Shown here piece after piece: positions 4,018-33,510 of a stretch of DNA of 33,770 nucleotides. Source of the DNA: a virus (lineage: Duplodnaviria > Heunggongvirae > Uroviricota > Caudoviricetes); the IMG/VR virus record IMGVR_UViG_2724679140_000008; one strand, given 5' to 3'. Position 1 is the first letter of the stretch. Each line of letters begins with the position of its first letter. The notes below the pieces were generated by a model. That model searched no databases and was not told the DNA's origin. It was given only the letters and a program-made list of their open reading frames with translations. Made by a program: the position numbers and the translations under genes.

Positions 4018-7000
4018 TACCGATATGCTCCACTTAACCGACCACCATCACGGGCCTGCTGTTGCATAAAGTCCGCTGCCGCTTTTTTCCCGAGGTCATA
4101 AACCGCCTTCAGGGCAGCCGGACCTATCTGCCCGTTCGTGCCATCGTTATTGATCTCGATGTTGTACTGCGGGGAAAACATCGCCATACCTGACCCCCCA
4201 ATATCCGCCACAACCCCCAGCTTACCGTCAGCACCACGACGCAATGGCAGAATGGCTTCAGGTCCCGCTTCCCCCATCACACCCGCGCCTTTTGCAAAAG
4301 CAAAAAACGTCGGACGGTTAACCACCGTGCCACTGTAACGACTCAAATCAGCAGACTGATAAATCCCCCCATTGGCATTCAGGGAAAGGCTGCTGAGATC
4401 AAATCCCAGTACACTGCCAATCCCTTTTATCGATTTCATCATGGTTGCCTGCGCCAGGATTTTCGCCATATCTGACAGCACAGAAGAGGTGAAGGATTTG
4501 AAATTGAGTTTGCCGGTAGTGACAAAAGTTGCCAGGCCATTTCCCATGTTGCTGAAGGCTGACGAGAACACCTGTTCTGCTGTTTCTGCCGTATTATCTG
4601 CATCCACGGTAAAATCCTGAAATGCACGCAGGACTCCGTTTTTCCAGTTACCCTGCACAACTTCAAGCTGTTGCCAGTAACGGCGATTCTCATTCAGTTG
4701 TCGGTTCAGGCTCTCCGTCAGCGCCTGCTCGGCCTTTCTGTAGTCATCCGTGTTATATGTCCCTTTCTGCTCACTATCCCGCCTCAACTGCTCCAGCTGT
4801 TGCTGGTATTTCTGGCGAAGACTCAGTTGTACCTGATATCGCTGTCGCTGCTGATCACCCATACCCACCGTGGCGATATCCAGGTCATGTTGCTGACGCT
4901 GAGCGCGCTCTTCTTCAGCCAGTTGACTGGTCAGCTGAATTGTTTTTTTCTTCAGCTCGTTGAGTGCCGTCTGTTTCTGAAGCTCCTGCTGTTTTACATC
5001 CAGCAGCGTCAGTGCCTGAATCAGTTCATCTTTACGGGCCAGCACACTCTTTTCATCTGCCGTCAGTTTTTTCCCGTCCAGGTCGCTGATGCGCTGCTGC
5101 AGAGCCAGAAGCTGTTTATGCGCTTCTGTCATCCTTTCCGTGGCAGTGCCTGCTGACTGTCTGGCAGCAGCAATCTGTCCTTCCACCTGTGCCTGTTGCT
5201 GACTGTACTGCAGCAATAACCGGGTGGCCTCATCATTACGGGTTTCGCGTGTTTTTTTCTTACCGGATGCCAGGGCTTTCTCGTAACGTTCATTTTCACG
5301 TTGTATCGCCGCATCCCTGACAGCCTGATCGGCGTACTGCATGGCATTAATACGCGCAATTTCACGCTGATGTCGTGCTGCTTCCGTTTCATTCATCCGG
5401 TTCAGTGCAGCATTTTCAGCATTACGGCGTTTCTGTTGCTCCTGATAATTCCGCTCTGCCTGCTCTTTTGCATCCTGCAAATCCTTCTGGCGTTTTTTCT
5501 CCTGAAGATCGTTAAGACGCTGCTGATCGTATTCAACCTGAGAAGATGATGCCGTCCAGGGGAGTCTTTTCGCCCGCGACACTTTCTCCTGTAAAGCGGC
5601 AATCTGTTCATCCAGCGAGTCTTCACGACCAATATTCATGGCCGCATCCCAGAAACGACTCCACAAATCAGACAGATACTTCAGCGTACTGCCAAGCGCA
5701 TTGAGGTTATTATCAATATCCGCAGTACGCCGACCGGTTTCCTCTGCCAGTGCAGACATGGCTATCCGTGCAGCATCACTGGACCGCCCCTGCTCCCCAA
5801 GGACGCGTATCTGCTCAAGCTGAGTGGCAGTAAGAAAATGCAGCTCATTGTCCAGAGCCTTCGCGGCATTTACAGGATCATCCTTCAGCCGCTTAAACTG
5901 ATTTATGGTATCGCTGACCGACTGGCCAACCGATCGCTCCATCTGTGCGGCAACTCTCGCCACCATACCGATATCGTTTCCACGAAATGCACCACTCCCC
6001 ACCACCTGAGCCAGCGCACCGGCTGCAGCATGTTGCGTGATACCATTCCCGGAAATAGCACGACTGAGCGTCCACAGCTGCCCGGCAGTGACTCCGGCAT
6101 AATGCCCCGTCAGCGACAACTGGCGGTTAAATTCTTCCCCCTCCTTCTGACCGTCATACCAGGCTTTACCCAGACCATAGACGGCCGCGGCAATACCGCC
6201 AATAACCCAGCCAAGCATCATGCCTTTCGGTGACATCAGTGTGTCTATCCATCCGGCACGGTTAGCCAGCGTTATCCCGGATCCCCTCAGCGCCCCTAAA
6301 TTGCCGCGGGCCAGTTCACCTATCAGAACGCCTATCTCCTGGCGGGCTGCTGCACTTTTCAGACCCAGCGAATGCGTGGCTTTTCCTGCCTGCTCCATTT
6401 TGCGGATATACACTTCTGCAGCACTGCTTACCCCCAGCTGGGCTGCCTTAGCACGAAGCAACTCAGAAGATGAAAGATTCAGGCGGGTTGCCTGCTCTTT
6501 AAGCTGACGGATAAACGCCACTTTCTGTCGGGTAGCCTCTTCCTCAGCCTGTGTAAGAACACGGGTTTTCGCAGTAACCTCAGAAATCAGCGCCAGATAA
6601 TCCTGCTGACCAATCCCGCCACTGTTTCTGGCCTGTCGGATCTGCTGCTGAATACGCTGTAATTCCTGCAGCCCCGCACTGGCCTGTTTCACACTGTCAA
6701 TCTGACGATAAAACGCAGCAGCCGCTTTATCCTGAGCCTCCGCCAGAGCCATGGCCTGCGCCTGTTCCTCGCGCATTTTCTGACTCAGTGCCTCCATGCG
6801 CTGGCGGGTTTTCTCCACCTCGCGGGCCATGCGTTCATGAGCCTGTGCGTTCTTCTCCACCGTCTGCGTATGGACGGATGCGGCTGTTGCAGCCGAAGAA
6901 GCTGCCTGCGTTGTCTGCCGGGCGGCCTGAGTCTGACGCTCCATAAAACGCTGCATACGGGCAGAAGACCGTTCTGCATCGCTGGCTGCACCATTCAGAA

Positions 7001-17993: not shown

Positions 17994-18263
17994 TCAATTC
18001 AAGAGTCTCATTGCTGCTTCCAGAATTTCTTCTGAAGTTACATGTCGATCCGCTGCTACATAAATGACTTTATGATCTCCGGTCAGAGATGGAAACCCTG
18101 CAGCCATTACAGTGAGGTGTGTTGTTTCGCCATTTGGATATTCACGCATGATGGTGTTAACTCCGGTCATCACTGGCACTACCATTGCTGGTTCAGAGTT
18201 AAAAAAACTATTATTTTTTTTCATAATGTTACCGTAATATGTGAGTATCCATCGACTAGACAC
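17994..18263 (-). CDS. Hypothetical small protein
   Basis: ORF-track ORF of 89 aa adjacent to the csp gene; several internal Met could be the real start. Confidence 0.35.
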   Translation of the reverse strand: MSSRWILTYYGNIMKKNNSFFNSEPAMVVPVMTGVNTIMREYPNGETTHLTVMAAGFPSLTGDHKVIYVAADRHVTSEEILEAAMRLLN

Positions 18264-18495
18264 TAAGCAAAAAAGCTCCCGAAGGAGCCTTCATTTTCAC
18301 TTTCTTAAATCTAACGACAGATGGCTAACATTTAAGTATTGTGAAATATTATCAAATGTGATCATCATTGATTTACAAAAGATACATTTTGCCCCGAAAG
18401 GATTTCTGTCAGAAACATCAAAAGATGATGTTCTATACTGAGAACCATGGCAACACGGGCATCTAAAGTGAATATGGTTTGTAATATTTTCTACC

Positions 18496-18708
18496 TCAAA
18501 GTGCCACTACATGAACAGCTGCAGGGCCTTTAGGTCCGTTCTCAATACCAAATTCGACTTCCTGATTCTCAGTTAACGTTTTGAAATCGTTGCTCTGAAT
18601 AGCTGAGAAATGCACAAACACATCTTTGCTACCATCTTTCGGCGTGATGAAACCAAAACCTTTTTCAGGGTTAAACCATTTCACTAAACCAGTCATTTTG
18701 TTAGACAT
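18496..18708 (-). CDS. cspI: Cold-shock protein, CspA family (cspI-like)
   Basis: [70 protein letters not shown], with the canonical RNP1/RNP2 cold-shock motifs. A long AT-rich leader lies upstream (18712-19070). Confidence 0.9.
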
Positions 18709-19071
18709 CATTATTACCTTTTGAAGAAGTTAGCCCTTGGGCAGAATGGTCCGAAAAAAAATATCAGAGAGAAAAACCAACAAGGAAATCTCAAGAGGTA
18801 CAAATAATAAAATTATAACAATGACTGCTTCAGATAATTTTGTAACAAACCAGAACACCATTAACGCATGATTAACCAACCATAGCAAGGATTACTTTTG
18901 TAAAGAAAAACACACGAATGAAACAATAGCTTTATTTATTAATAAAACGTGTCATTCTGTCTAATGACCTTTTATCTTACCCTTAAGATTTCAAGGATTT
19001 TGACTCATGGAAGAGTCCTTTTTATTTAAATTTCACATTCAGCGCTAAAAATAATCCGATTTAATATTAAT

Positions 19072-20095
<1,024 letters not shown>

Positions 20096-20099
<4 letters not shown>

Positions 20100-20407
20100 A
20101 GATATTTATGATGAGGACGCTCGTGCTTATTGGCAGGATTTTCAATCTTAAAGGAGTACTGATGCTGCAGATAAGACTCAACTTTTTCTGACAATTTTTC
20201 TGCTACTTCCAGGAAGACTTGCCGGACGCTCATTCTGGCTGCTGCCTCATAAAACTCCAGCGCAGCTCCTTCAACACGGTCCATGGCGACATCCAGGCCA
20301 AAAATTTCACCGTCAAAGCGTTCTTTGTCCTGTAAGGCTACAGTTACCGTAACTTTATTCTCAAAATTACGGACTCCTTTCACAACCAGTTCATAGTCTT
20401 GAGTCAT
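20096..20407 (-). CDS. ydfR: YdfR-like protein of unknown function inside the lysis cassette
   Basis: 103 aa, soluble, acidic; same size and position (between holin and lysozyme) as ydfR in Qin. Confidence 0.6.
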
Positions 20408-20411
20408 TGGA

Positions 20412-20627
20412 TTACTCTCCTCTCGCAGCCTTACGCCTGTCTTCTTTAATCTTGAAATAAAGATTTGTCAGGTACGTCAGCAGGCCAAATACCAGGCTAC
20501 CCAGCACACCTATTGCTGCCCACTGTGAGGGCGTGACTTTATCGAGCAGCTGTAAAAACCAGTAGCCAGCACTGCCTGCGGAGGTGCCGTAGGCAATGCC
20601 TGTTGAAATTTTGTCCATGGATTTCAT
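20412..20627 (-). CDS. Pinholin, phage 21 S-type (class II holin) with dual start
   Basis: [71 protein letters not shown], near-identical to S21. Met1 and Met4 are the antiholin/holin starts; GGAGGTG RBS. The ORF track extends upstream to 20684. Confidence 0.9.
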
Positions 20628-20723
20628 AGCCTCACCTCCGCACGGAACGGATGGCATAGTTATTATGTGTAGGCTTCCAGACACATCAATCAGAGCCTTA
20701 ATTGATATATATGCTGGAGACGA

Positions 20724-20753
20724 TGCAATATAAAAAGCTCGCCGTAGCGAGCT
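20724..20753 (-). terminator. Intrinsic terminator downstream of the lipoprotein genes and upstream of the holin
   Basis: Minus-strand hairpin AGCTCGC-tacg-GCGAGCT followed by TTTTTATA. Confidence 0.5.
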
Positions 20754-20878
20754 AATAAAATGTATTTCTCTGATATTATGTTTATTTGTATTAGCTCAGA
20801 CTTGACATCACAGGTTTCGTATATAGAACATCATCAAATCTGTCAGTTTGCTATGAATGAGATATAGTAATTGAAGAG

Positions 20879-21274
20879 CTAACCTCGCATGTCAAAGCCA
20901 GATTTCTGAAAATCTCTGTAGACTTCCGGATTGTTGAAGGCCGGAAATTTGGCTTTATGAGCTGCGGACTTTATCGCTTCGCAATAGGCTTTATCACCGT
21001 TACTGGTAGATATTTTTAACGCCGTGCCATCCTGAGAGAATTCCATATGCAACCTGCATTTTTTCCCTTTCCAGTTATGCGGCTCATCAAGTTTGGCATT
21101 AATTGCAGCTCTGATTCCCCGCGCTTGCGCCCCCCATTCATCCTGATCATCCCAGCGTCCTGAACTGCAACTACCTGTAGCAGTAGTTTTGTGGCAATCT
21201 GAAGGGTGTAAAGGTGTGCATCCCGCAACAAAACCGACCCAAAAAGTCAACATAACGATTTTCTTTAATCCCAC
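20879..21274 (-). CDS. Outer-membrane lipoprotein with TolA C-terminal (domain III)-like domain, paralog 2
   Basis: GTG start after GGAG; signal peptide with lipobox (MGLKKIVMLTFWVGFVAGC, Thr at +2). C-terminal ...KGKKCRLHMEFSQDGTALKISTSNGDKAYCEAIKSAAHKAKFPAFNNPEVYRDFQKSGF aligns with the TolA domain III pattern, including both Cys. Confidence 0.8.
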   Translation of the reverse strand: MGLKKIVMLTFWVGFVAGCTPLHPSDCHKTTATGSCSSGRWDDQDEWGAQARGIRAAINAKLDEPHNWKGKKCRLHMEFSQDGTALKISTSNGDKAYCEAIKSAAHKAKFPAFNNPEVYRDFQKSGFDMRG

Positions 21275-21424
21275 TTCTTGCTCCTCAATCCATTAAAATC
21301 TCAGCAATAGTAGTTGTTACGTCCGCCACTGGCTCAGAGCTGACTATCCGCTAAATTTAGCTCAGTGCCGTAGTTGTGTCAGAACAAACCTAAGCCGAAA
21401 CCGTTTATTACAAAACAATAAATA

Positions 21425-21853
21425 TCAGGGTTTAAAATCCAGCACCCCATTTTGAAATACTTTATATACTTCCGGCGAAGGGGGGGCAGGTATATCAGCA
21501 TTCTTTATCGCATTCATCGCTTCACGACATAAATCGAGGTCTCCACTTTCTCTTTTAACCTCCAGTAGAAGGCCATTCGGGGCCATATGCATTCTCAGTG
21601 TACACTCTTTTCCTGAATACTTACTCGCATCCCCGAACTGTTTTTCGATGGCGCTCTTGATTTGATGGGCATACAGACGGATATCCTCACTAACATCAGA
21701 AGTACGTTCAGATGAACTCACATACTGTGTCTCTATTGCTTTATCGGAGTAATATGATGTACGGTCATGATAATTTGTCGATACAGCATCAGTGCACCCG
21801 ATAATAATCCCACTAATAATCAACGTAAGAATTGATGCGCTACGAAAACCCAT
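21425..21853 (-). CDS. Outer-membrane lipoprotein with TolA C-terminal (domain III)-like domain, paralog 1
   Basis: Signal peptide with lipobox (MGFRSASILTLIISGIIIGC, Thr at +2); GAGGA RBS. C-terminal HQIKSAIEKQFGDASKYSGKECTLRMHMAPNGLLLEVKRESGDLDLCREAMNAIKNADIPAPPSPEVYKVFQNGVLDFKP closely matches the E. coli TolA C-terminus as I recall it (...QIKSAIESKFYDASSYAGKTCTLRIKLAPDGMLLDIKPEGGDPALCQAALAAAKLAKIPKPPSQAVYEVFKNAPLDFKP). Confidence 0.85.
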   Translation of the reverse strand: MGFRSASILTLIISGIIIGCTDAVSTNYHDRTSYYSDKAIETQYVSSSERTSDVSEDIRLYAHQIKSAIEKQFGDASKYSGKECTLRMHMAPNGLLLEVKRESGDLDLCREAMNAIKNADIPAPPSPEVYKVFQNGVLDFKP

Positions 21854-21869
21854 TTTTCCTCACATATGT

Positions 21870-21910
21870 CATATAGTAAAGAATTATATATACCGTTGTT
21901 TTGGACGCTC
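21870..21910 (-). promoter_or_regulatory. Candidate sigma70 promoter for the lipoprotein genes
   Basis: Minus strand reads ...TTTGAGCGTCCAAAACAACGGTATATATAATTC about 20-40 nt upstream of the RBS. Unverified. Confidence 0.3.
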
Positions 21911-22386
21911 AAACAGCGAATCAGATCAAATAAAACGCACATTTGTTAACATTTACACAAAGTCTGCGTGGGATATTCTGAAAGAATATCCATAATGTGG
22001 AGAGAATCTATTGAAGTGCATGGTGCCGGGTGCCTCCCGGTGAATTCAGTACCAGCACCTGAATCCGCGATTATCCCATATACCTACTCGCTGATTGCCC
22101 CTCCGCACAGGGGGATTCACCATGCCAGTTTCTTTTAACAAACTCCCCGCAAACCAGAGAACAGTCAACCGCCTGAATTGTGAAGTATTTAAAAATTTCT
22201 CCCGCTAACTGATACCCGGCTAACAGTCTGGCGTTTTCTTTTTCAGCAACGGGAAAGCAACAACCACCACACCCGCCACCAGCACACTGTCAGCCAGCAC
22301 TGACATTATCCGGCTGCTGCAATGCCATTCACAAAAACAGTAAGCAATCACTTTTTACCGTAACAGGTGATAATCCAGATATGTAT

Positions 22387-22740
22387 CTACCCCAGATGAG
22401 TAATCCGAAGTTCATCCATACCACAGGTCCTGGCTATTCTGTTGTACTCCTGAACAAGAGCAAATAATTCTGAATTAGCAACCATGAACTCATCGCAAAC
22501 CCTCTGTATAGCATCACTATTCAGAATAATAACGTCTCTTCCCGAAAGACGATCAGGAGCACAGAACAAAACTGTCAAACGGCTGAAGGCCTTTGCTCGT
22601 GCTGCATTGACTATATCAATACGCTGCCTAAGGATGAAACACCCCGACGCCTCATCAATATTCACTCTACCCACACCATATGAATGATAAATATTTAATG
22701 CTGAAAAAACCATTAGACCGTATAACAAACACTCAATCAA
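22387..22740 (-). CDS. Hypothetical protein between the tRNAs and the lipoprotein genes
   Basis: ORF-track ORF of 117 aa with a TTG start and no convincing Shine-Dalgarno; internal ATG at about 22713; no recognisable motif. Confidence 0.3.
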   Translation of the reverse strand: MIECLLYGLMVFSALNIYHSYGVGRVNIDEASGCFILRQRIDIVNAARAKAFSRLTVLFCAPDRLSGRDVIILNSDAIQRVCDEFMVANSELFALVQEYNRIARTCGMDELRITHLG

Positions 22741-22850
22741 TACTTAACAGAACTTTTATTTTTGACAAACATATTATGTTTTCAACAATATCCTGAGCCA
22801 GGTATATTCCAGTATAAGGCTCTGCCGGAAGGAATCTGGAAGAATGAATA

Positions 22851-22927
22851 TGGCGCGCTGTACTGGATTCGAACCAGTGACCGATTGCTTAGAAGGCAAT
22901 TGCTCTGTCCGGCTGAGCTAACAACGC
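22851..22927 (-). tRNA. tRNA-Arg (anticodon UCU)
   Basis: Minus-strand sequence GCGTTGTTAGCTCAGCCGGACAGAGCAATTGCCTTCTAAGCAATCGGTCACTGGTTCGAATCCAGTACAGCGCGCCA: 7-bp acceptor stem, anticodon loop CU-UCU-AA, GGTTCGAATCC T-arm, encoded CCA. Coordinates anchored on the spurious ORF 22762..23049. Confidence 0.9.
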
Positions 22928-22940
22928 TGAATACCGATAA

Positions 22941-23020
22941 TGGACCGCCATCGGGGACCCGCCCCCGCACCAACAACCCTGTTATCGTGTCGTCTGCTCT
23001 TCCTGATAAGCTAATGGCGG
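22941..23020 (-). ncRNA. Degenerate tRNA-like element (pseudo-tRNA)
   Basis: Minus strand CCGCCAT-TA-...-CGGGG-GCGGGT-CCCCG-ATGGCGG-T-CCA: perfect 7-bp acceptor stem, U8/A9, a T-arm-like hairpin, discriminator and CCA, but no canonical anticodon arm or T-loop. Confidence 0.3.
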
Positions 23021-23027
23021 TTTGTGA

Positions 23028-23103
23028 TGGTGGCCCTTGCTGGATTTGAACCAGCGACCTGGCGATTATGAGTCGCTCGCTCTCACCACTGAGCTAAAGG
23101 GCC
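23028..23103 (-). tRNA. tRNA with CAU anticodon (Ile2-like, ileX/ileZ type; Met not excluded)
   Basis: Minus-strand sequence GGCCCTTTAGCTCAGTGGTGAGAGCGAGCGACTCATAATCGCCAGGTCGCTGGTTCAAATCCAGCAAGGGCCACCA, which closely resembles E. coli ileX as I recall it. Confidence 0.88.
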
Positions 23104-23139
23104 GGGAGCAGAATAATAACGGTCCGTAATTAATTCCGC

Positions 23140-23166
23140 AATAAAAAACCCGCTCGGCGGCGGGTT
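23140..23166 (-). terminator. Intrinsic terminator downstream of the late promoter (tR'-like)
   Basis: Minus strand AACCCGC-CGCCGA-GCGGGTT followed by TTTTTT, about 60 nt downstream of the candidate promoter. Confidence 0.55.
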
Positions 23167-23206
23167 GTAGAAACTCTTCTAACGTCAGGCATAAAAAGCC
23201 CATCAT

Positions 23207-23246
23207 TATGACGAATTTACCACAGATTCCGGAAAAATCAACCTTG
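23207..23246 (-). promoter_or_regulatory. Candidate late promoter (pR'-like) just downstream of Q
   Basis: Minus strand TTGATT-N17-TAAATT immediately after the Q stop; placement as in lambdoid pR'/qut. Confidence 0.4.
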
Positions 23247-24068
23247 TTACCTAGTTACCTTTTTTAACTGCCGCTCAGCCCATGCTTCTTCAATATCAAA
23301 CCGGGTCACCAGCGCATCATAGAATTTCTTAACTGTTTTTTCCCATGACGCGCGTGTTATCTGGTTTGTCACCTCGCATATAGCATTAAATGCCTCCGTT
23401 GATGGTAGTCTTTCATAGCCACGACCACCACAACGCTGGCAGTCTCTGATAACAGGCATACCACGTTTTACCGACTCTTCACGGTGAATGGCGACACCAC
23501 GCCCACGGCAATCCTTACAGGCGGTGGAAACCTCACCCTTTCCGCCACACTCCGGACAGGCAACTTTTACCACCTCCCTGACTTTTTTCCATTCTTCCCA
23601 GTAAGACGGATACACACCTTTCGTACACTTTGCCCATACCGGCGGCTTACCATCCGGATACTGGACCTTGTTTGTAAAAACTATGCTTTCAATAAATTTT
23701 TCCCCATAGCAACAAGGGCACTGCTTTTTACTCGCTGCGCTGCGGGCATAATCCTCAAAAGCGTACGAAGCCATAATGCGCATCACTACCGGTTTTATTT
23801 CTGCCGGAAGTTTTCTCAACGCCGCCACACGATCGCACCGACTGAGTGCATAATCTGCCAGTAATTCTGTTGCCCGCGCCCTGTCATTCATACTGATGCC
23901 CATTTTCCCCAGGAACGCAGAAAAACCCATCTCAGCCCGATTCTGTGTCATGCCCTGCGCGGCCATCACATCAGTGATACTCAGCGCATCTTTTGACGTT
24001 GAGGCCGATGCATCGGTCAGGCCAGGGGATTTTGGGGAGTAGTATTTCGGTAAATCTTCCAGTTTCAT
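23247..24068 (-). CDS. Late-gene antitermination protein Q
   Basis: 273 aa with Cys-rich zinc-binding clusters (CPCCYGEKF...CPECGGKGE...CKDCRGRG...CQRCGGRG), upstream of a late promoter/terminator pair. Confidence 0.85.
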   Translation of the reverse strand: MKLEDLPKYYSPKSPGLTDASASTSKDALSITDVMAAQGMTQNRAEMGFSAFLGKMGISMNDRARATELLADYALSRCDRVAALRKLPAEIKPVVMRIMASYAFEDYARSAASKKQCPCCYGEKFIESIVFTNKVQYPDGKPPVWAKCTKGVYPSYWEEWKKVREVVKVACPECGGKGEVSTACKDCRGRGVAIHREESVKRGMPVIRDCQRCGGRGYERLPSTEAFNAICEVTNQITRASWEKTVKKFYDALVTRFDIEEAWAERQLKKVTR

Positions 24069-24082
24069 TTTTTGACCTGCTC

Positions 24083-24439
24083 TTAATGCATTATGGGGTA
24101 AATCTTCACCCCCAGACGTCCACCAGATACTGGCTGACCACGAACGATATTGATTTCATCAAACTGCTCATCGTCCATTAACACTCCCGCATGCGTCAGC
24201 GCATCCAGCGGTGCTTTCAGGATATTGTCCAGGTCGCGACGACGCTTATCCGGTGGCTCTGCAATCACCTTTATCGCCAGCCTTCCGGACAGGCTTAATT
24301 TCAGCCGCTGCTGGCGAACAATAAGCGCCACAGCCCGGCGATAACGCTTTCCCTCCTCCGAGATAAAATATGTGCTGCCACGGCGTCGCCAGTAAGTGTT
24401 CACCGTCGGCGGGTAAGGTAAAACCAAATCTATGAGCAT
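24083..24439 (-). CDS. rusA: Holliday-junction resolvase RusA
   Basis: 118 aa; PPTVNTYW...DKRRRDLDNILKAPLDAL... matches the RusA catalytic core (DxxRRDLDN). Confidence 0.9.
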   Translation of the reverse strand: MLIDLVLPYPPTVNTYWRRRGSTYFISEEGKRYRRAVALIVRQQRLKLSLSGRLAIKVIAEPPDKRRRDLDNILKAPLDALTHAGVLMDDEQFDEINIVRGQPVSGGRLGVKIYPIMH

Positions 24440-24451
24440 CAGTCACCTCTT

Positions 24452-25540
24452 TTACCCAAGCACGCCAGTTGCAAAGGCGTGATCAAGAAAACGAAAAATT
24501 AAATCAACCTGAGAACCATGCTTTTCTTCGAACGCCAGAGGATCCGCATGAAGCTCGTTGTGATGCTCCCGACACAGCGGTAGCGTGAAAATATCGTGAG
24601 ATTTTGTCCCCATTCCGCCCTGACCATGACCAATCAGGTGATGGGGATCGTCGGCTGGCTTACCACAACACGCACACGGCTGTGTCTTCACCCAGCGTTT
24701 GTATTTCTCGTTAACCCAGCGGCGACGTTTAGGTCGTTTCATGAAAGATTCCGGAGACTCAGGATCAACGGCAATGCTGACCACCGTCTTTTCCTGTGGT
24801 GGGTTCTGTTGCTGGTGGGCGTGAGGCAGCGGCGCAAGATTTTTTGTGCGCTGTTTCAGTATGCTGGTGGCGGTCTGCTCTCCCGGTACGATGTCGCTTT
24901 CACGGTACATTGAGCGGATTTTTTCCGCACGCAACCCCAGCGAACGACGTAATACCGCTTCCGGTAGCGCGTCCGCCACCTGATTGCAGACCGCCCACCA
25001 GGATAATTCAGCCAGAGATAATTCCCGCTCCTGCGTACCGCTTATTGCGTGACGGATGACGTCAATCACCCATGCTGTCAGATTTTGTTGAGCAAGCAGC
25101 TCCAGTGATTCCGATGTCTGGTCACGCAGTTGGTTGTCGCAGTGCCAGCACAACACCATTGCGCCGGTACCATAACGGTGAATGACTGTTTCAGTGTGAT
25201 GGTAATCGCCATTAGGCCACTGGCAGGATGTAACATGACGTAATAGCCAGTCGGACAATGCGCCAACGCCGCCAGCAGCACGAATCACCCGTTCGTTACT
25301 AAAAAACGGCAGCAATGTTTTGTCTTCCGCCAGCGGCTGGCGAACGGCAGGAACGACTCCGGATGGCAGATTACGCATGCTTTTTGGTTCCGGTTCCACC
25401 AGCACTCGAGGATTATGAAATATCTGTATGGATTCACGGCCCGGCTTAAGGACCACCAGCCCAAGCTCAGGCACCAGAACAGGTCTAAGTAATACCCGCA
25501 CGTTACCTCCAGATCCGTTGCTGGAAAGTGCGGGACGCAC
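24452..25540 (-). CDS. ydfU: YdfU-like DUF968 protein with an HNH-like Cys/His motif
   Basis: 362-aa ORF with a GTG start; C-terminal ...QPCACCGKPADDPHHLIGHGQGG...CREHHNELH. The true start is uncertain because the first 38 nt overlap the upstream ORF. Confidence 0.75.
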   Translation of the reverse strand: MRPALSSNGSGGNVRVLLRPVLVPELGLVVLKPGRESIQIFHNPRVLVEPEPKSMRNLPSGVVPAVRQPLAEDKTLLPFFSNERVIRAAGGVGALSDWLLRHVTSCQWPNGDYHHTETVIHRYGTGAMVLCWHCDNQLRDQTSESLELLAQQNLTAWVIDVIRHAISGTQERELSLAELSWWAVCNQVADALPEAVLRRSLGLRAEKIRSMYRESDIVPGEQTATSILKQRTKNLAPLPHAHQQQNPPQEKTVVSIAVDPESPESFMKRPKRRRWVNEKYKRWVKTQPCACCGKPADDPHHLIGHGQGGMGTKSHDIFTLPLCREHHNELHADPLAFEEKHGSQVDLIFRFLDHAFATGVLG

Positions 25541-33453: not shown

Positions 33454-33510
33454 TTTCTGGTGACGTTTGGCGGTATCAGTTTTACTCCGTGACTGCTCTG
33501 CCGCCCTTTT
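33454..33510 (+). ncRNA. dicF: DicF small RNA
   Basis: TTTCTGGTGACGTTTGGCGGTATCAGTTTTACTCCGTGACTGCTCTGCCGCCCTTTTT, identical to the E. coli DicF sequence as I recall it, ending in its own terminator hairpin and U-run. Confidence 0.88.

Follow-up and report, generated by a model that had tools for sequence, protein, structure and literature searches.

The gap between the antiterminator gene Q and the holin gene of lambdoid phages is the place in which Shiga toxin (Stx) phages carry the toxin genes stxAB behind a tRNA module. A prophage which keeps this arrangement without stx raises the question of what fills the gap instead, how the cargo is exchanged, and what its products might do for the host. 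The window considered here, i.e., the whole analysed stretch of 33,770 nucleotides (IMG/VR record IMGVR_UViG_2724679140_000008), is a Qin-type lambdoid prophage with 99.9% identity to Escherichia phage mEp460_ev081. Its positions 20685-23246 correspond to the exact gap between the Q stop codon and the longest holin reading frame. Every gene of this slot is located on the minus strand, to which the features described below belong unless stated otherwise, and the 2562-bp slot is 100% identical to that of a prophage at the K-12 Qin site of E. coli GB089, which is flanked by relBE-hokD-rem-ydfU on one side and by essD-ydfR-rrrQ-rzpQ-cspI on the other. An earlier note on this DNA had described the gap as a self-contained moron island in the position of the Stx locus. 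All of the elements it listed, namely Q, the late promoter pR', the terminator tR', the tRNAs and a tRNA-like remnant, an open reading frame (ORF), two TolA-like lipoprotein genes, a candidate promoter, a terminator and the holin gene, were found, all on the minus strand. Our analysis makes it very likely that the region is the late cargo slot, between Q and an S21-type holin, of a Qin-type (mEp460-like) lambdoid prophage, filled by at least three exchangeable modules. The two lipoproteins may act as decoys for ligands of the host protein TolA, a mechanism to which we assign slightly less than an even chance; for the explanation as a whole, a mosaic slot carrying decoy lipoproteins, the chances appear to be about balanced.

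Pairwise comparisons with related prophages do not support a self-contained island; instead, the slot is put together like a mosaic from at least three modules, exchanged independently and distributed differently, with breakpoints at position 22017 or 22145, at the small RNA element STnc100. Module 1 comprises pR'-tR'-ileZ-(argN remnant)-argO and is common to Stx phages, whereas module 2, ORF108-DUF3927, occurs in 1182 of 5426 complete E. coli genomes. Module 3 consists of STnc100, the lipoprotein genes TolA1 and TolA2, and a terminator; the TolA pair is present in 773 of the 5426 genomes (14%), and the whole slot in 357. The prophage of strain CFT073 (locus L005) matches the Q-RusA region 23139-24500 at 99.7% identity and shares the tRNAs, ORF108, DUF3927 and the STnc100 core down to 22017, beyond which iraM and other genes follow. 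In this strain (L005 3905-4240 and 5547-6138), iraM is found instead of the TolA pair, tR' and the tRNAs are separated by an IS200C insertion with STnc490, and argN is intact. Rac-type prophages share the other side, 22145-20411, with STnc100, TolA1, TolA2, the terminator and the holin gene; they have a DUF1133-type Q and lack the tRNAs. The corresponding slot of K-12 Qin holds ynfS-cspF-cspB-ynfU, in agreement with the csp genes named for it in the earlier note; K-12 Qin is 94.6% identical to the window at 18001-20654 and shares nothing from 20654 to the tR' region. The possibility that the TolA pair is a fixed part of the lysis operon in all relatives, which would have spoken against movable cargo, was discarded, since K-12 Qin lacks the pair and CFT073 carries other genes at this place. 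Between conserved Q and holin genes, only some relatives have the TolA module, as expected of a moron.

The likeness to the Stx locus held for the order of the elements, the homologous tRNA module and the presence of STnc100, but not for the position of the lipoprotein genes. Both late regions run from Q through a late promoter and terminator, tRNA module, cargo, STnc100 and further cargo to the holin gene; in Stx2 phages, the order is argO, stxAB, STnc100, nanS-p, holin. In the window, the TolA pair lies downstream of STnc100, i.e., in the position of nanS-p, and it is ORF108-DUF3927, between argO and STnc100, which holds the position of stxAB. A Stx2a phage shares only the tRNA module (22843-23143, 88% identity), the STnc100 core and the holin with the window, which has neither stx nor nanS-p, a degenerate argN, and a holin of the S21 type; the Q protein of Stx2a_WGPS8 comprises 144 amino acids, compared to 273 (PF03589) in the window. 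TolA1 homologues exactly at the stx position occur in E. coli JNE082640 (tRNA-Ile, tRNA-Arg, TolA1-like gene, STnc100, ..., nanS-p) and in loci L013 and L014. Variants of TolA1 with 91%, 74% and 66% identity, as well as the JNE082640 homologue, are all encoded between Q and holin, directly after the tRNAs or directly after a copy of STnc100, and are accompanied by other co-cargo, including genes for a PmrD-like protein, an AraC-like protein, TfpB and a SASA esterase. The TolA1 family thus is recurrent late-region cargo, which backs the spirit of the earlier reading.

The STnc100/PasD-family element (21964-22154) was identified by a match to Rfam RF02076 with 114 bits (gathering score, 47), covering model positions 1-206 with an intact core. 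Lambdoid prophages are known to encode STnc100 and PasD, small RNAs associated with Hfq, between Q and holin; Stx2 phages have one STnc100 copy about 75 nt downstream of stx2B, and PasD was reported to be abundant in enteropathogenic E. coli strain E2348/69 (bioRxiv 10.64898/2026.05.13.724894; PMC12370729). The copy downstream of stx2B was also seen in the Stx2 locus L004. In pairwise comparisons, the two breakpoints that recur, 22017 and 22145, fall within this element or at its border. Moreover, some prophages carry several copies of it: E. coli JNE082640 (L007) has five in a single Q-to-holin slot (1466-2423 and 4182-4394), four of them in near-tandem arrangement just upstream of the nanS-p esterase gene, and in L016 and L017 three copies flank a TolA1-like gene. 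The position of the breakpoints and the multiple copies suggest that STnc100 is likely a recombination joint between cassettes.

While the niche and the full-length match are those of known STnc100/PasD elements, the 3' end of the window copy differs. The canonical terminator GCCCCTCTCCGGAGGGGC with its U run is replaced by an AT-rich hairpin, GGATATTCTTTCAGAATATCC, without a U tract (-9.5 vs. -17.3 kcal/mol for the canonical hairpin), and the same replacement is found in the Rac-type loci. Transcription should therefore continue into the TolA-like genes, and the terminator-less copy may act as a 5' leader of their mRNA instead of yielding a separate small RNA. An alignment of six copies shows the motifs GTTGAC and CACAATTC to be kept upstream of STnc100, but no convincing -10 hexamer at the right spacing for a sigma70 or sigma54 promoter was detected. 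A partial "hypothetical protein" pseudogene, annotated by PGAP on the plus strand at 21995-22135 (L001 7311-7451) and antisense to STnc100, is probably an annotation artefact.

The cargo downstream of this joint consists of two genes for small lipoproteins. TolA1 (21425-21853), a protein of 142 amino acids, comprises a linker and a complete TolA domain III (PF06519, E 2.4e-23), and TolA2 (20879-21274, GTG start, 131 amino acids) likewise contains TolA domain III (PF06519, E 1.3e-14); the scores of 82.6 and 54.6 bits, respectively, are well above the Pfam cut-off of 25. The N-terminus of TolA1, MGFRSASILTLIISGIIIGC followed by Thr, contains the lipobox IIGC, and that of TolA2, MGLKKIVMLTFWVGFVAGC followed by Thr, the lipobox VAGC; the lipobox is conserved in homologues. 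Lipoproteins which do not have Asp at position +2 are sorted to the outer membrane. With Thr at +2, both TolA1 and TolA2 are predicted to be lipidated and located in the outer membrane, with domain III following a linker of about 30-35 residues. The two proteins are paralogues which share 29% identity.

TolA1 is 60.5% identical to residues 336-421 of E. coli TolA; it retains the disulphide cysteines, and its C-terminal LDFKP is identical to that of TolA, including residues D418, F419, K420 and P421 of strand beta3. This strand is the site bound via strand augmentation by g3p-N1, colicin N and the TolB N-terminus, with D418 and K420 being critical (PMC4339652; PMC7391070). The colicin A box LLDIKP reads LLEVKR in TolA1, a conservative change. 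TolA2 shares 33.8% identity with E. coli TolA. Its AlphaFold2 (AF2) model is confident at residues 45-131 (pLDDT >85), matches 3QDP in a Foldseek comparison with a TM score of 0.92 and a root-mean-square deviation of 1.1 Å, and superimposes on TolA domain III (TolAIII) in the structures of colicin and g3p complexes. From the lipid cysteine onwards, residues 19-36 of TolA2 form the motif C-x-PL-x-P-x2-C-x-K-x2-A-x3-C (C19, C27 and C36, i.e., Cys-x7-Cys-x8-Cys), which is common to TolA2-type homologues down to 18-24% overall identity and missing from TolA1; the confidence of the AF2 model is low here.

Both proteins resemble domain III of E. coli TolA (residues ~334-421; PDB 1S62, 3QDP/3QDR, 1TOL, 2X9A), TolA2 in its modelled fold and TolA1 in its sequence with the disulphide cysteines and the LDFKP of beta3, but they lack the transmembrane domain I and the long helical domain II, in place of which they have a lipoprotein signal and a short linker. 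Without domains I and II, coupling to TolQR is not to be expected. Judged from its sequence, TolA1 is not a TolA orthologue, since these two domains are missing and its N-terminus is a lipoprotein signal peptide. Although its score on TIGR02794 exceeds the cut-off (75.6 vs. 59.45 bits), only the last 97 of 362 model positions (265-362) are covered, and the match to NF007065 is confined to positions 293-386 of 387, with 107.8 bits vs. a cut-off of 213. The RefSeq/PGAP name "tolA: cell envelope integrity protein TolA", also given to L001 6741-7169, is a case of over-naming which has spread to hundreds of genomes.

TolA1 and TolA2 are under purifying selection, as indicated by ratios of nonsynonymous to synonymous substitution rates (dN/dS) of 0.35 for TolA1 compared with the JNE082640 variant, and of 0.12 for TolA2 compared with its homologue on pO157. 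Divergence among the TolA1 variants is concentrated in signal peptide and linker, with domain III nearly invariant; lipobox, disulphide cysteines and domain core persist in variants down to 66% identity and across genera. Some copies are nevertheless disrupted, with a TolA1 pseudogene in strain H14 and IS1 or IS3 insertions in several genomes. These copies, like the decay of the neighbouring argN in the same slot, would be in line with the genes being passenger DNA, i.e., remains of a captured host tolA which are in decay and carried along in a recombination hot spot. This explanation is disfavoured by the selection data and the conserved residues, and likewise by the confident TolAIII-like model, by good Shine-Dalgarno sequences (AGGA, and GAGGAG ahead of the GTG of TolA2) and by the size of the family: among 1.8 billion cluster representatives, 130 clusters were found, 68 of which represent proteins of 105-170 amino acids, 54 of these with a lipobox-like N-terminus. 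We consider it very improbable.

By analogy with the interactions of TolA, we propose that TolA1 and TolA2 may function as decoys. A TolA domain III which is anchored via a flexible linker on the periplasmic side of the outer membrane would be unable to transduce force, but could bind the ligands of TolAIII. Group A colicins (A, E1, K and N) and filamentous-phage g3p-N1 would be caught by their TolA-binding epitopes on entering the periplasm; captured ligands would never reach the energised TolA of the inner membrane, and the lysogen would be tolerant. Levengood-Freyermuth et al. reportedly found in 1993 that overproduction of periplasmic TolA domain III makes E. coli colicin-tolerant; such cells are tolerant but leaky. 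Dissociation constants are 40-200 μM for TolA-TolB (PMC7391070), compared to about 1 μM for ColN-TolA (PMC4339652). This lower affinity for TolB would favour selective capture of the invaders.

Small phage lipoproteins of the outer membrane which protect the cell have precedents in Cor (phi80, N15, HK022) and Llp (T5), which block the receptor FhuA by plugging it. Llp is treated as a phage lipoprotein in bioRxiv 10.64898/2026.03.26.714494. TolA1 and TolA2 are predicted to share size and location with these proteins and, as decoys, would likewise protect, here against phages and colicins which share an import route. The mode of action would differ, because Cor and Llp plug a receptor, whereas TolA1 and TolA2 would mimic a periplasmic translocation partner. 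Searches of Pfam and PHROGs revealed no similarity to Cor or Llp; the only matches were to TolA/TonB_2 and to families of unknown function.

The TolA-like gene family extends to many Enterobacteriaceae, on plasmids as well as on chromosomes. TolA2-type genes reside on about 600 plasmids of E. coli and Shigella, including pO157, with 88% protein identity (87% at the nucleotide level). On the pO157-type plasmid pZ887-1 (L006 4003-4434), the gene adjoins a truncated nikB, and on the IncK2/Z I-complex conjugative plasmid pSH275-2 (L010 3465-3896), it is located directly downstream of the relaxase genes nikA-nikB. Conjugative plasmids fit the decoy proposal, since TolA-dependent filamentous phages use the pili encoded by them. 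In Klebsiella, a gene with 35% identity to TolA2 is found behind a thioredoxin-fold gene on about 300 plasmids. An example of this pairing is a 144-amino-acid "tolA" on a Klebsiella pneumoniae IncFII plasmid (L011 2717-3746). In Serratia marcescens (L024 4001-6736), a TolA2-type gene is situated between nrdDG and a GmrSD plus HEPN pair, in a neighbourhood with the look of a defence island, which would likewise suit a protective function. Exclusive association of the family with mobile elements was ruled out by Enterobacter genomes, in which TolA2-type genes occur in ordinary chromosomal (metabolic) neighbourhoods. That TolAIII outer-membrane lipoproteins might form a widespread class of translocon-mimic decoys on lambdoid prophages, pO157, I-complex plasmids and Klebsiella IncFII plasmids, conferring tolerance to TolA-dependent colicins and pilus-specific filamentous phages, is a bolder extension, which we regard as possible rather than probable. 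It would include that the two paralogues may cover different ligands, and that the terminator-less STnc100 may serve both as regulatory leader and as joint.

Several points weigh against the decoy proposal. A TolAIII decoy should also bind the N-terminus of TolB and could thereby harm the Tol-Pal system, which would be a cost to the lysogen. PADLOC had no model for the TolA-like proteins, DUF3927 or ORF108. In the open-access literature, no work on prophage or plasmid TolA-like proteins, TciB, DUF3927 or mEp460 was found beyond background on the interactions of TolA with colicins and g3p; as the search was confined to open-access papers, this negative is weak evidence. Only one of 50,697 deposited phage genomes, that of mEp460_ev081, carries the TolA-like genes. 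The candidate promoter, discussed below, is a consensus match only, and its -10 hexamer has decayed to TGTAAT in the variant with 91% identity. The ordinary neighbourhoods in Enterobacter point to a possible housekeeping role in the envelope that has nothing to do with defence. Finally, the lysis cassette is the constant neighbour of the TolA-like genes in prophages, a placement just as compatible with a late or lysis role.

This last point is the starting point for a different explanation, in which the proteins are accessories of late lysis or release: lipoproteins made mainly from the Q-antiterminated late transcript would titrate TolB at the outer membrane, and perhaps CpoB, and the ensuing transient tol phenotype with blebbing and leakiness would aid the pinholin, the signal-arrest-release (SAR) endolysin and the spanin, or the release of vesicles. 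In all prophage contexts seen, the genes are part of the late operon upstream of the holin gene, directly upstream of it in the window and in the Rac-type loci, where the TolA block is contiguous with the holin gene. Read-through from the upstream STnc100 copy is likely; the TolB-binding beta3 strand is conserved, and defects of Tol-Pal destabilise the outer membrane (PMC7391070). Against this explanation, holin, lysozyme, Rz and a nested Rz1-like ORF already provide the phage with a complete lysis set, the TolA pair is absent from relatives which share its Q and lysis genes, and close homologues occur on conjugative plasmids and on chromosomes with no lysis genes nearby.

The transcription signals around the TolA-like genes also argue against this explanation. 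A strong intrinsic terminator (20731-20753; stem-loop 20753-20736 followed by U5), which closes the operon, precedes the holin gene; it was found by a terminator scan, its fold has -13.0 kcal/mol and z = -4.05, none of 200 shuffled sequences folded as well in silico, and the distance to the holin ATG is 104 nt. On the other side, 30 nt upstream of the TolA1 ATG, a consensus scan revealed a candidate sigma70 promoter, TTGAGC-18-TATAAT (21883-21912), with 10 of 12 consensus positions. It is the sole match of at least 10/12 on the minus strand in 3.1 kb, and the probability of a chance occurrence in the 110-nt stretch upstream of the gene is about 0.015. In the lysogen, the TolA-like genes could be transcribed from this candidate promoter, as the earlier note had proposed, or by read-through from the STnc100 region, which would be an equally good route because the canonical terminator is missing from the STnc100 copy just upstream. 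After induction, Q-modified polymerase starting at pR' would pass both tR' and the operon terminator, and the whole slot would be made late. On balance, a function as accessories of late lysis or release seems rather unlikely.

Besides decoys and lysis accessories, the lipoproteins might be agents of lysogenic conversion which, expressed in the lysogen, tune Tol-Pal or outer-membrane stability, with effects on resistance to bile, detergent or serum, on vesicles or on biofilm, without blocking any invader. The model for such a role is provided by the lambda-type morons bor and lom, morons being understood as defined by Hendrix and colleagues. Like these, the module consists of extra genes present in some relatives only, with lower GC content, a terminator, a candidate promoter and envelope products; unlike these, it belongs to a cluster of several modules, has no sequence kinship with bor or lom, and its autonomous transcription is putative. 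The difference in GC content is modest, with 0.36-0.43 in parts of the island compared to 0.47-0.52 in Q and the lysis genes. Sister slots carry the regulators of host physiology IraM, PmrD-like and AraC-like proteins, and both the frequency of the element (14% of the complete E. coli genomes) and the Enterobacter genes in ordinary contexts are compatible with conversion. On the other hand, no Tol-Pal accessory protein of such architecture is known, and free TolAIII can only compete with TolA, so that inhibition rather than a benefit would be expected. We therefore regard lysogenic conversion of this kind as quite unlikely, and continue to favour, tentatively, the decoy mechanism.

The promoter-proximal part of the slot corresponds to the late promoter and terminator pair proposed in the earlier note. 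Direct comparison with lambda pR' (TTGACT-17-TAAATT-tgactc-AACGATGGG) identified a pR'-type late promoter at 23199-23241. Its -35 hexamer TTGATT (23241-23236), which begins five bases past the Q stop codon, is followed after 16 nt by the -10 hexamer TAAATT (23219-23214), the sequence cgtcat and a sigma70 pause element, AATGATGGG (23207-23199). The -10 hexamer is identical to that of lambda, and the pause element has the same position and nearly the same sequence; in lambda, this -10-like element pauses sigma70 polymerase and allows Q to load. Since the promoter scores 8/12, it falls below the threshold of the consensus scan. The tR' terminator (23141-23166; stem-loop 23166-23147 followed by U6; found by the terminator scan, with a fold energy of -11.2 kcal/mol) would end the pR' transcript at about 66 nt.

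Downstream of tR', two intact tRNA genes and a remnant represent the ileZ-argN-argO triplet. The first, with a CAU anticodon (tRNA-Ile2, ileZ type; 23028-23103), was called by ARAGORN, by Rfam (72.5 bits) and by PGAP (tRNA-Ile), and is 100% identical to ileZ of Stx2a_WGPS8; the second, tRNA-Arg(UCU) of the argO type (22851-22927; ARAGORN; Rfam, 68 bits), shows one mismatch to argO of the Stx2a phage. The tRNA-like remnant between them turned out to be real, as both ends of argN are kept in an alignment to ileZ-argN-argO of the Stx2a phage. It occupies about 22941-23020 in the 100-nt inter-tRNA spacer and retains the acceptor stem, the D arm and the 3' T-arm/acceptor sequence, whereas it has diverged in the anticodon and variable region. 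No tRNA was called here by ARAGORN, nor by Rfam at E ≤5. A working tRNA was rejected in favour of a pseudogene, because the cloverleaf-like fold has a z of only -1.25, the T loop is non-canonical and no tool recognised it. AUA accounts for 25-40% of the Ile codons in most of the slot and lysis genes (19072-24068), and AGA is frequent among their Arg codons. The two intact tRNAs, which decode AUA and AGA, match this over-use and would serve the island and the lysis genes.

The stxAB position is held by an ORF of unassigned function with 117 amino acids (22387-22740; phrog_2873, E 2e-69, residues 10-117). The ORF of the earlier note is indeed present at 22740-22387, but its length is likely 108 amino acids: the PHROGs match begins at Met10, so the start codon is probably the ATG at 22713, and we refer to the product as ORF108. 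There is no obvious Shine-Dalgarno sequence at either candidate start. A homologue without internal stop codon in JNE082640 shares 58% amino acid and 71% nucleotide identity. ORF108 had no match in Pfam, NCBIfam or PADLOC, and its AF2 model, built on eight near-identical sequences, is unusable (pLDDT 44, pTM 0.37). Although conserved in more than 1000 E. coli genomes, the gene is devoid of a PGAP annotation. The 533 bp between this ORF and the first lipoprotein gene, which had been taken for about 530 bp of non-coding DNA, hold both the STnc100 element and a gene for a small membrane protein of 43 amino acids of the DUF3927 family (22220-22351; PF13064, E 6e-26), which is annotated by PGAP. 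The corresponding phrog_1470 is labelled "TciB-like ... resistance to colicin"; this label could be traced to no experiment and was set aside as evidence.

The slot is bounded upstream by Q (23247-24068), encoding a 273-amino-acid antiterminator (PF03589, E 6.3e-55; PGAP, "antitermination protein"), and downstream by the gene of an S21-type (pin)holin with the dual start MKSM (20412-20627; PF04971, E 1e-35; PGAP, essD), which is followed by DUF1327/ydfR, lysozyme and Rz-like genes. The window and K-12 Qin are the same type of prophage with the same flanks (relBE, hokD, rem, ydfU / essQ, ydfR, rrrQ, rzpQ, cspI), but the content of the slot is entirely different, and Q differs as well: the ydfT product has 250 amino acids, and similarity, which is weak, is limited to the first 44 nt and the tR' region. 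A cspA-type thermoregulator 5' untranslated region (RF01766, 110 bits) was detected at 18450-18866, ahead of a cspI-like cold-shock gene (18711-18496). As this gene lies just 3' of Rz, csp cargo follows the lysis genes here, while K-12 Qin has extra csp genes in the slot between Q and holin. A full-length DicF small RNA (RF00039, 76.7 bits) is encoded on the plus strand at 33455-33506, as in the dicB operon region of Qin. Upstream of the holin gene, no small RNA of the AgvB/AsxR/PasA type was found by Rfam at E ≤5, and weak Rfam matches to Trp_leader and isrK are merely overlaps with terminators.

Cargo between Q and holin, tRNA modules and STnc100/PasD are already documented, and the sequence itself is annotated in hundreds of genomes; in the open-access literature, no function has been published for TolAIII lipoproteins, DUF3927 or ORF108. 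Of main interest are the cargo family and the part played by STnc100 as a joint, not the island itself. The Shiga toxin slot of lambdoid phages emerges as a scaffold of tRNAs and STnc100 joints in which other cargo is shuffled as well, which explains how such cassettes move. If the lipoproteins perturb Tol-Pal, this would bear on the release of vesicles from pathogenic E. coli. If they act as decoys, they would add a novel means by which mobile elements protect their hosts, with a bearing on antimicrobials based on colicins or phages.

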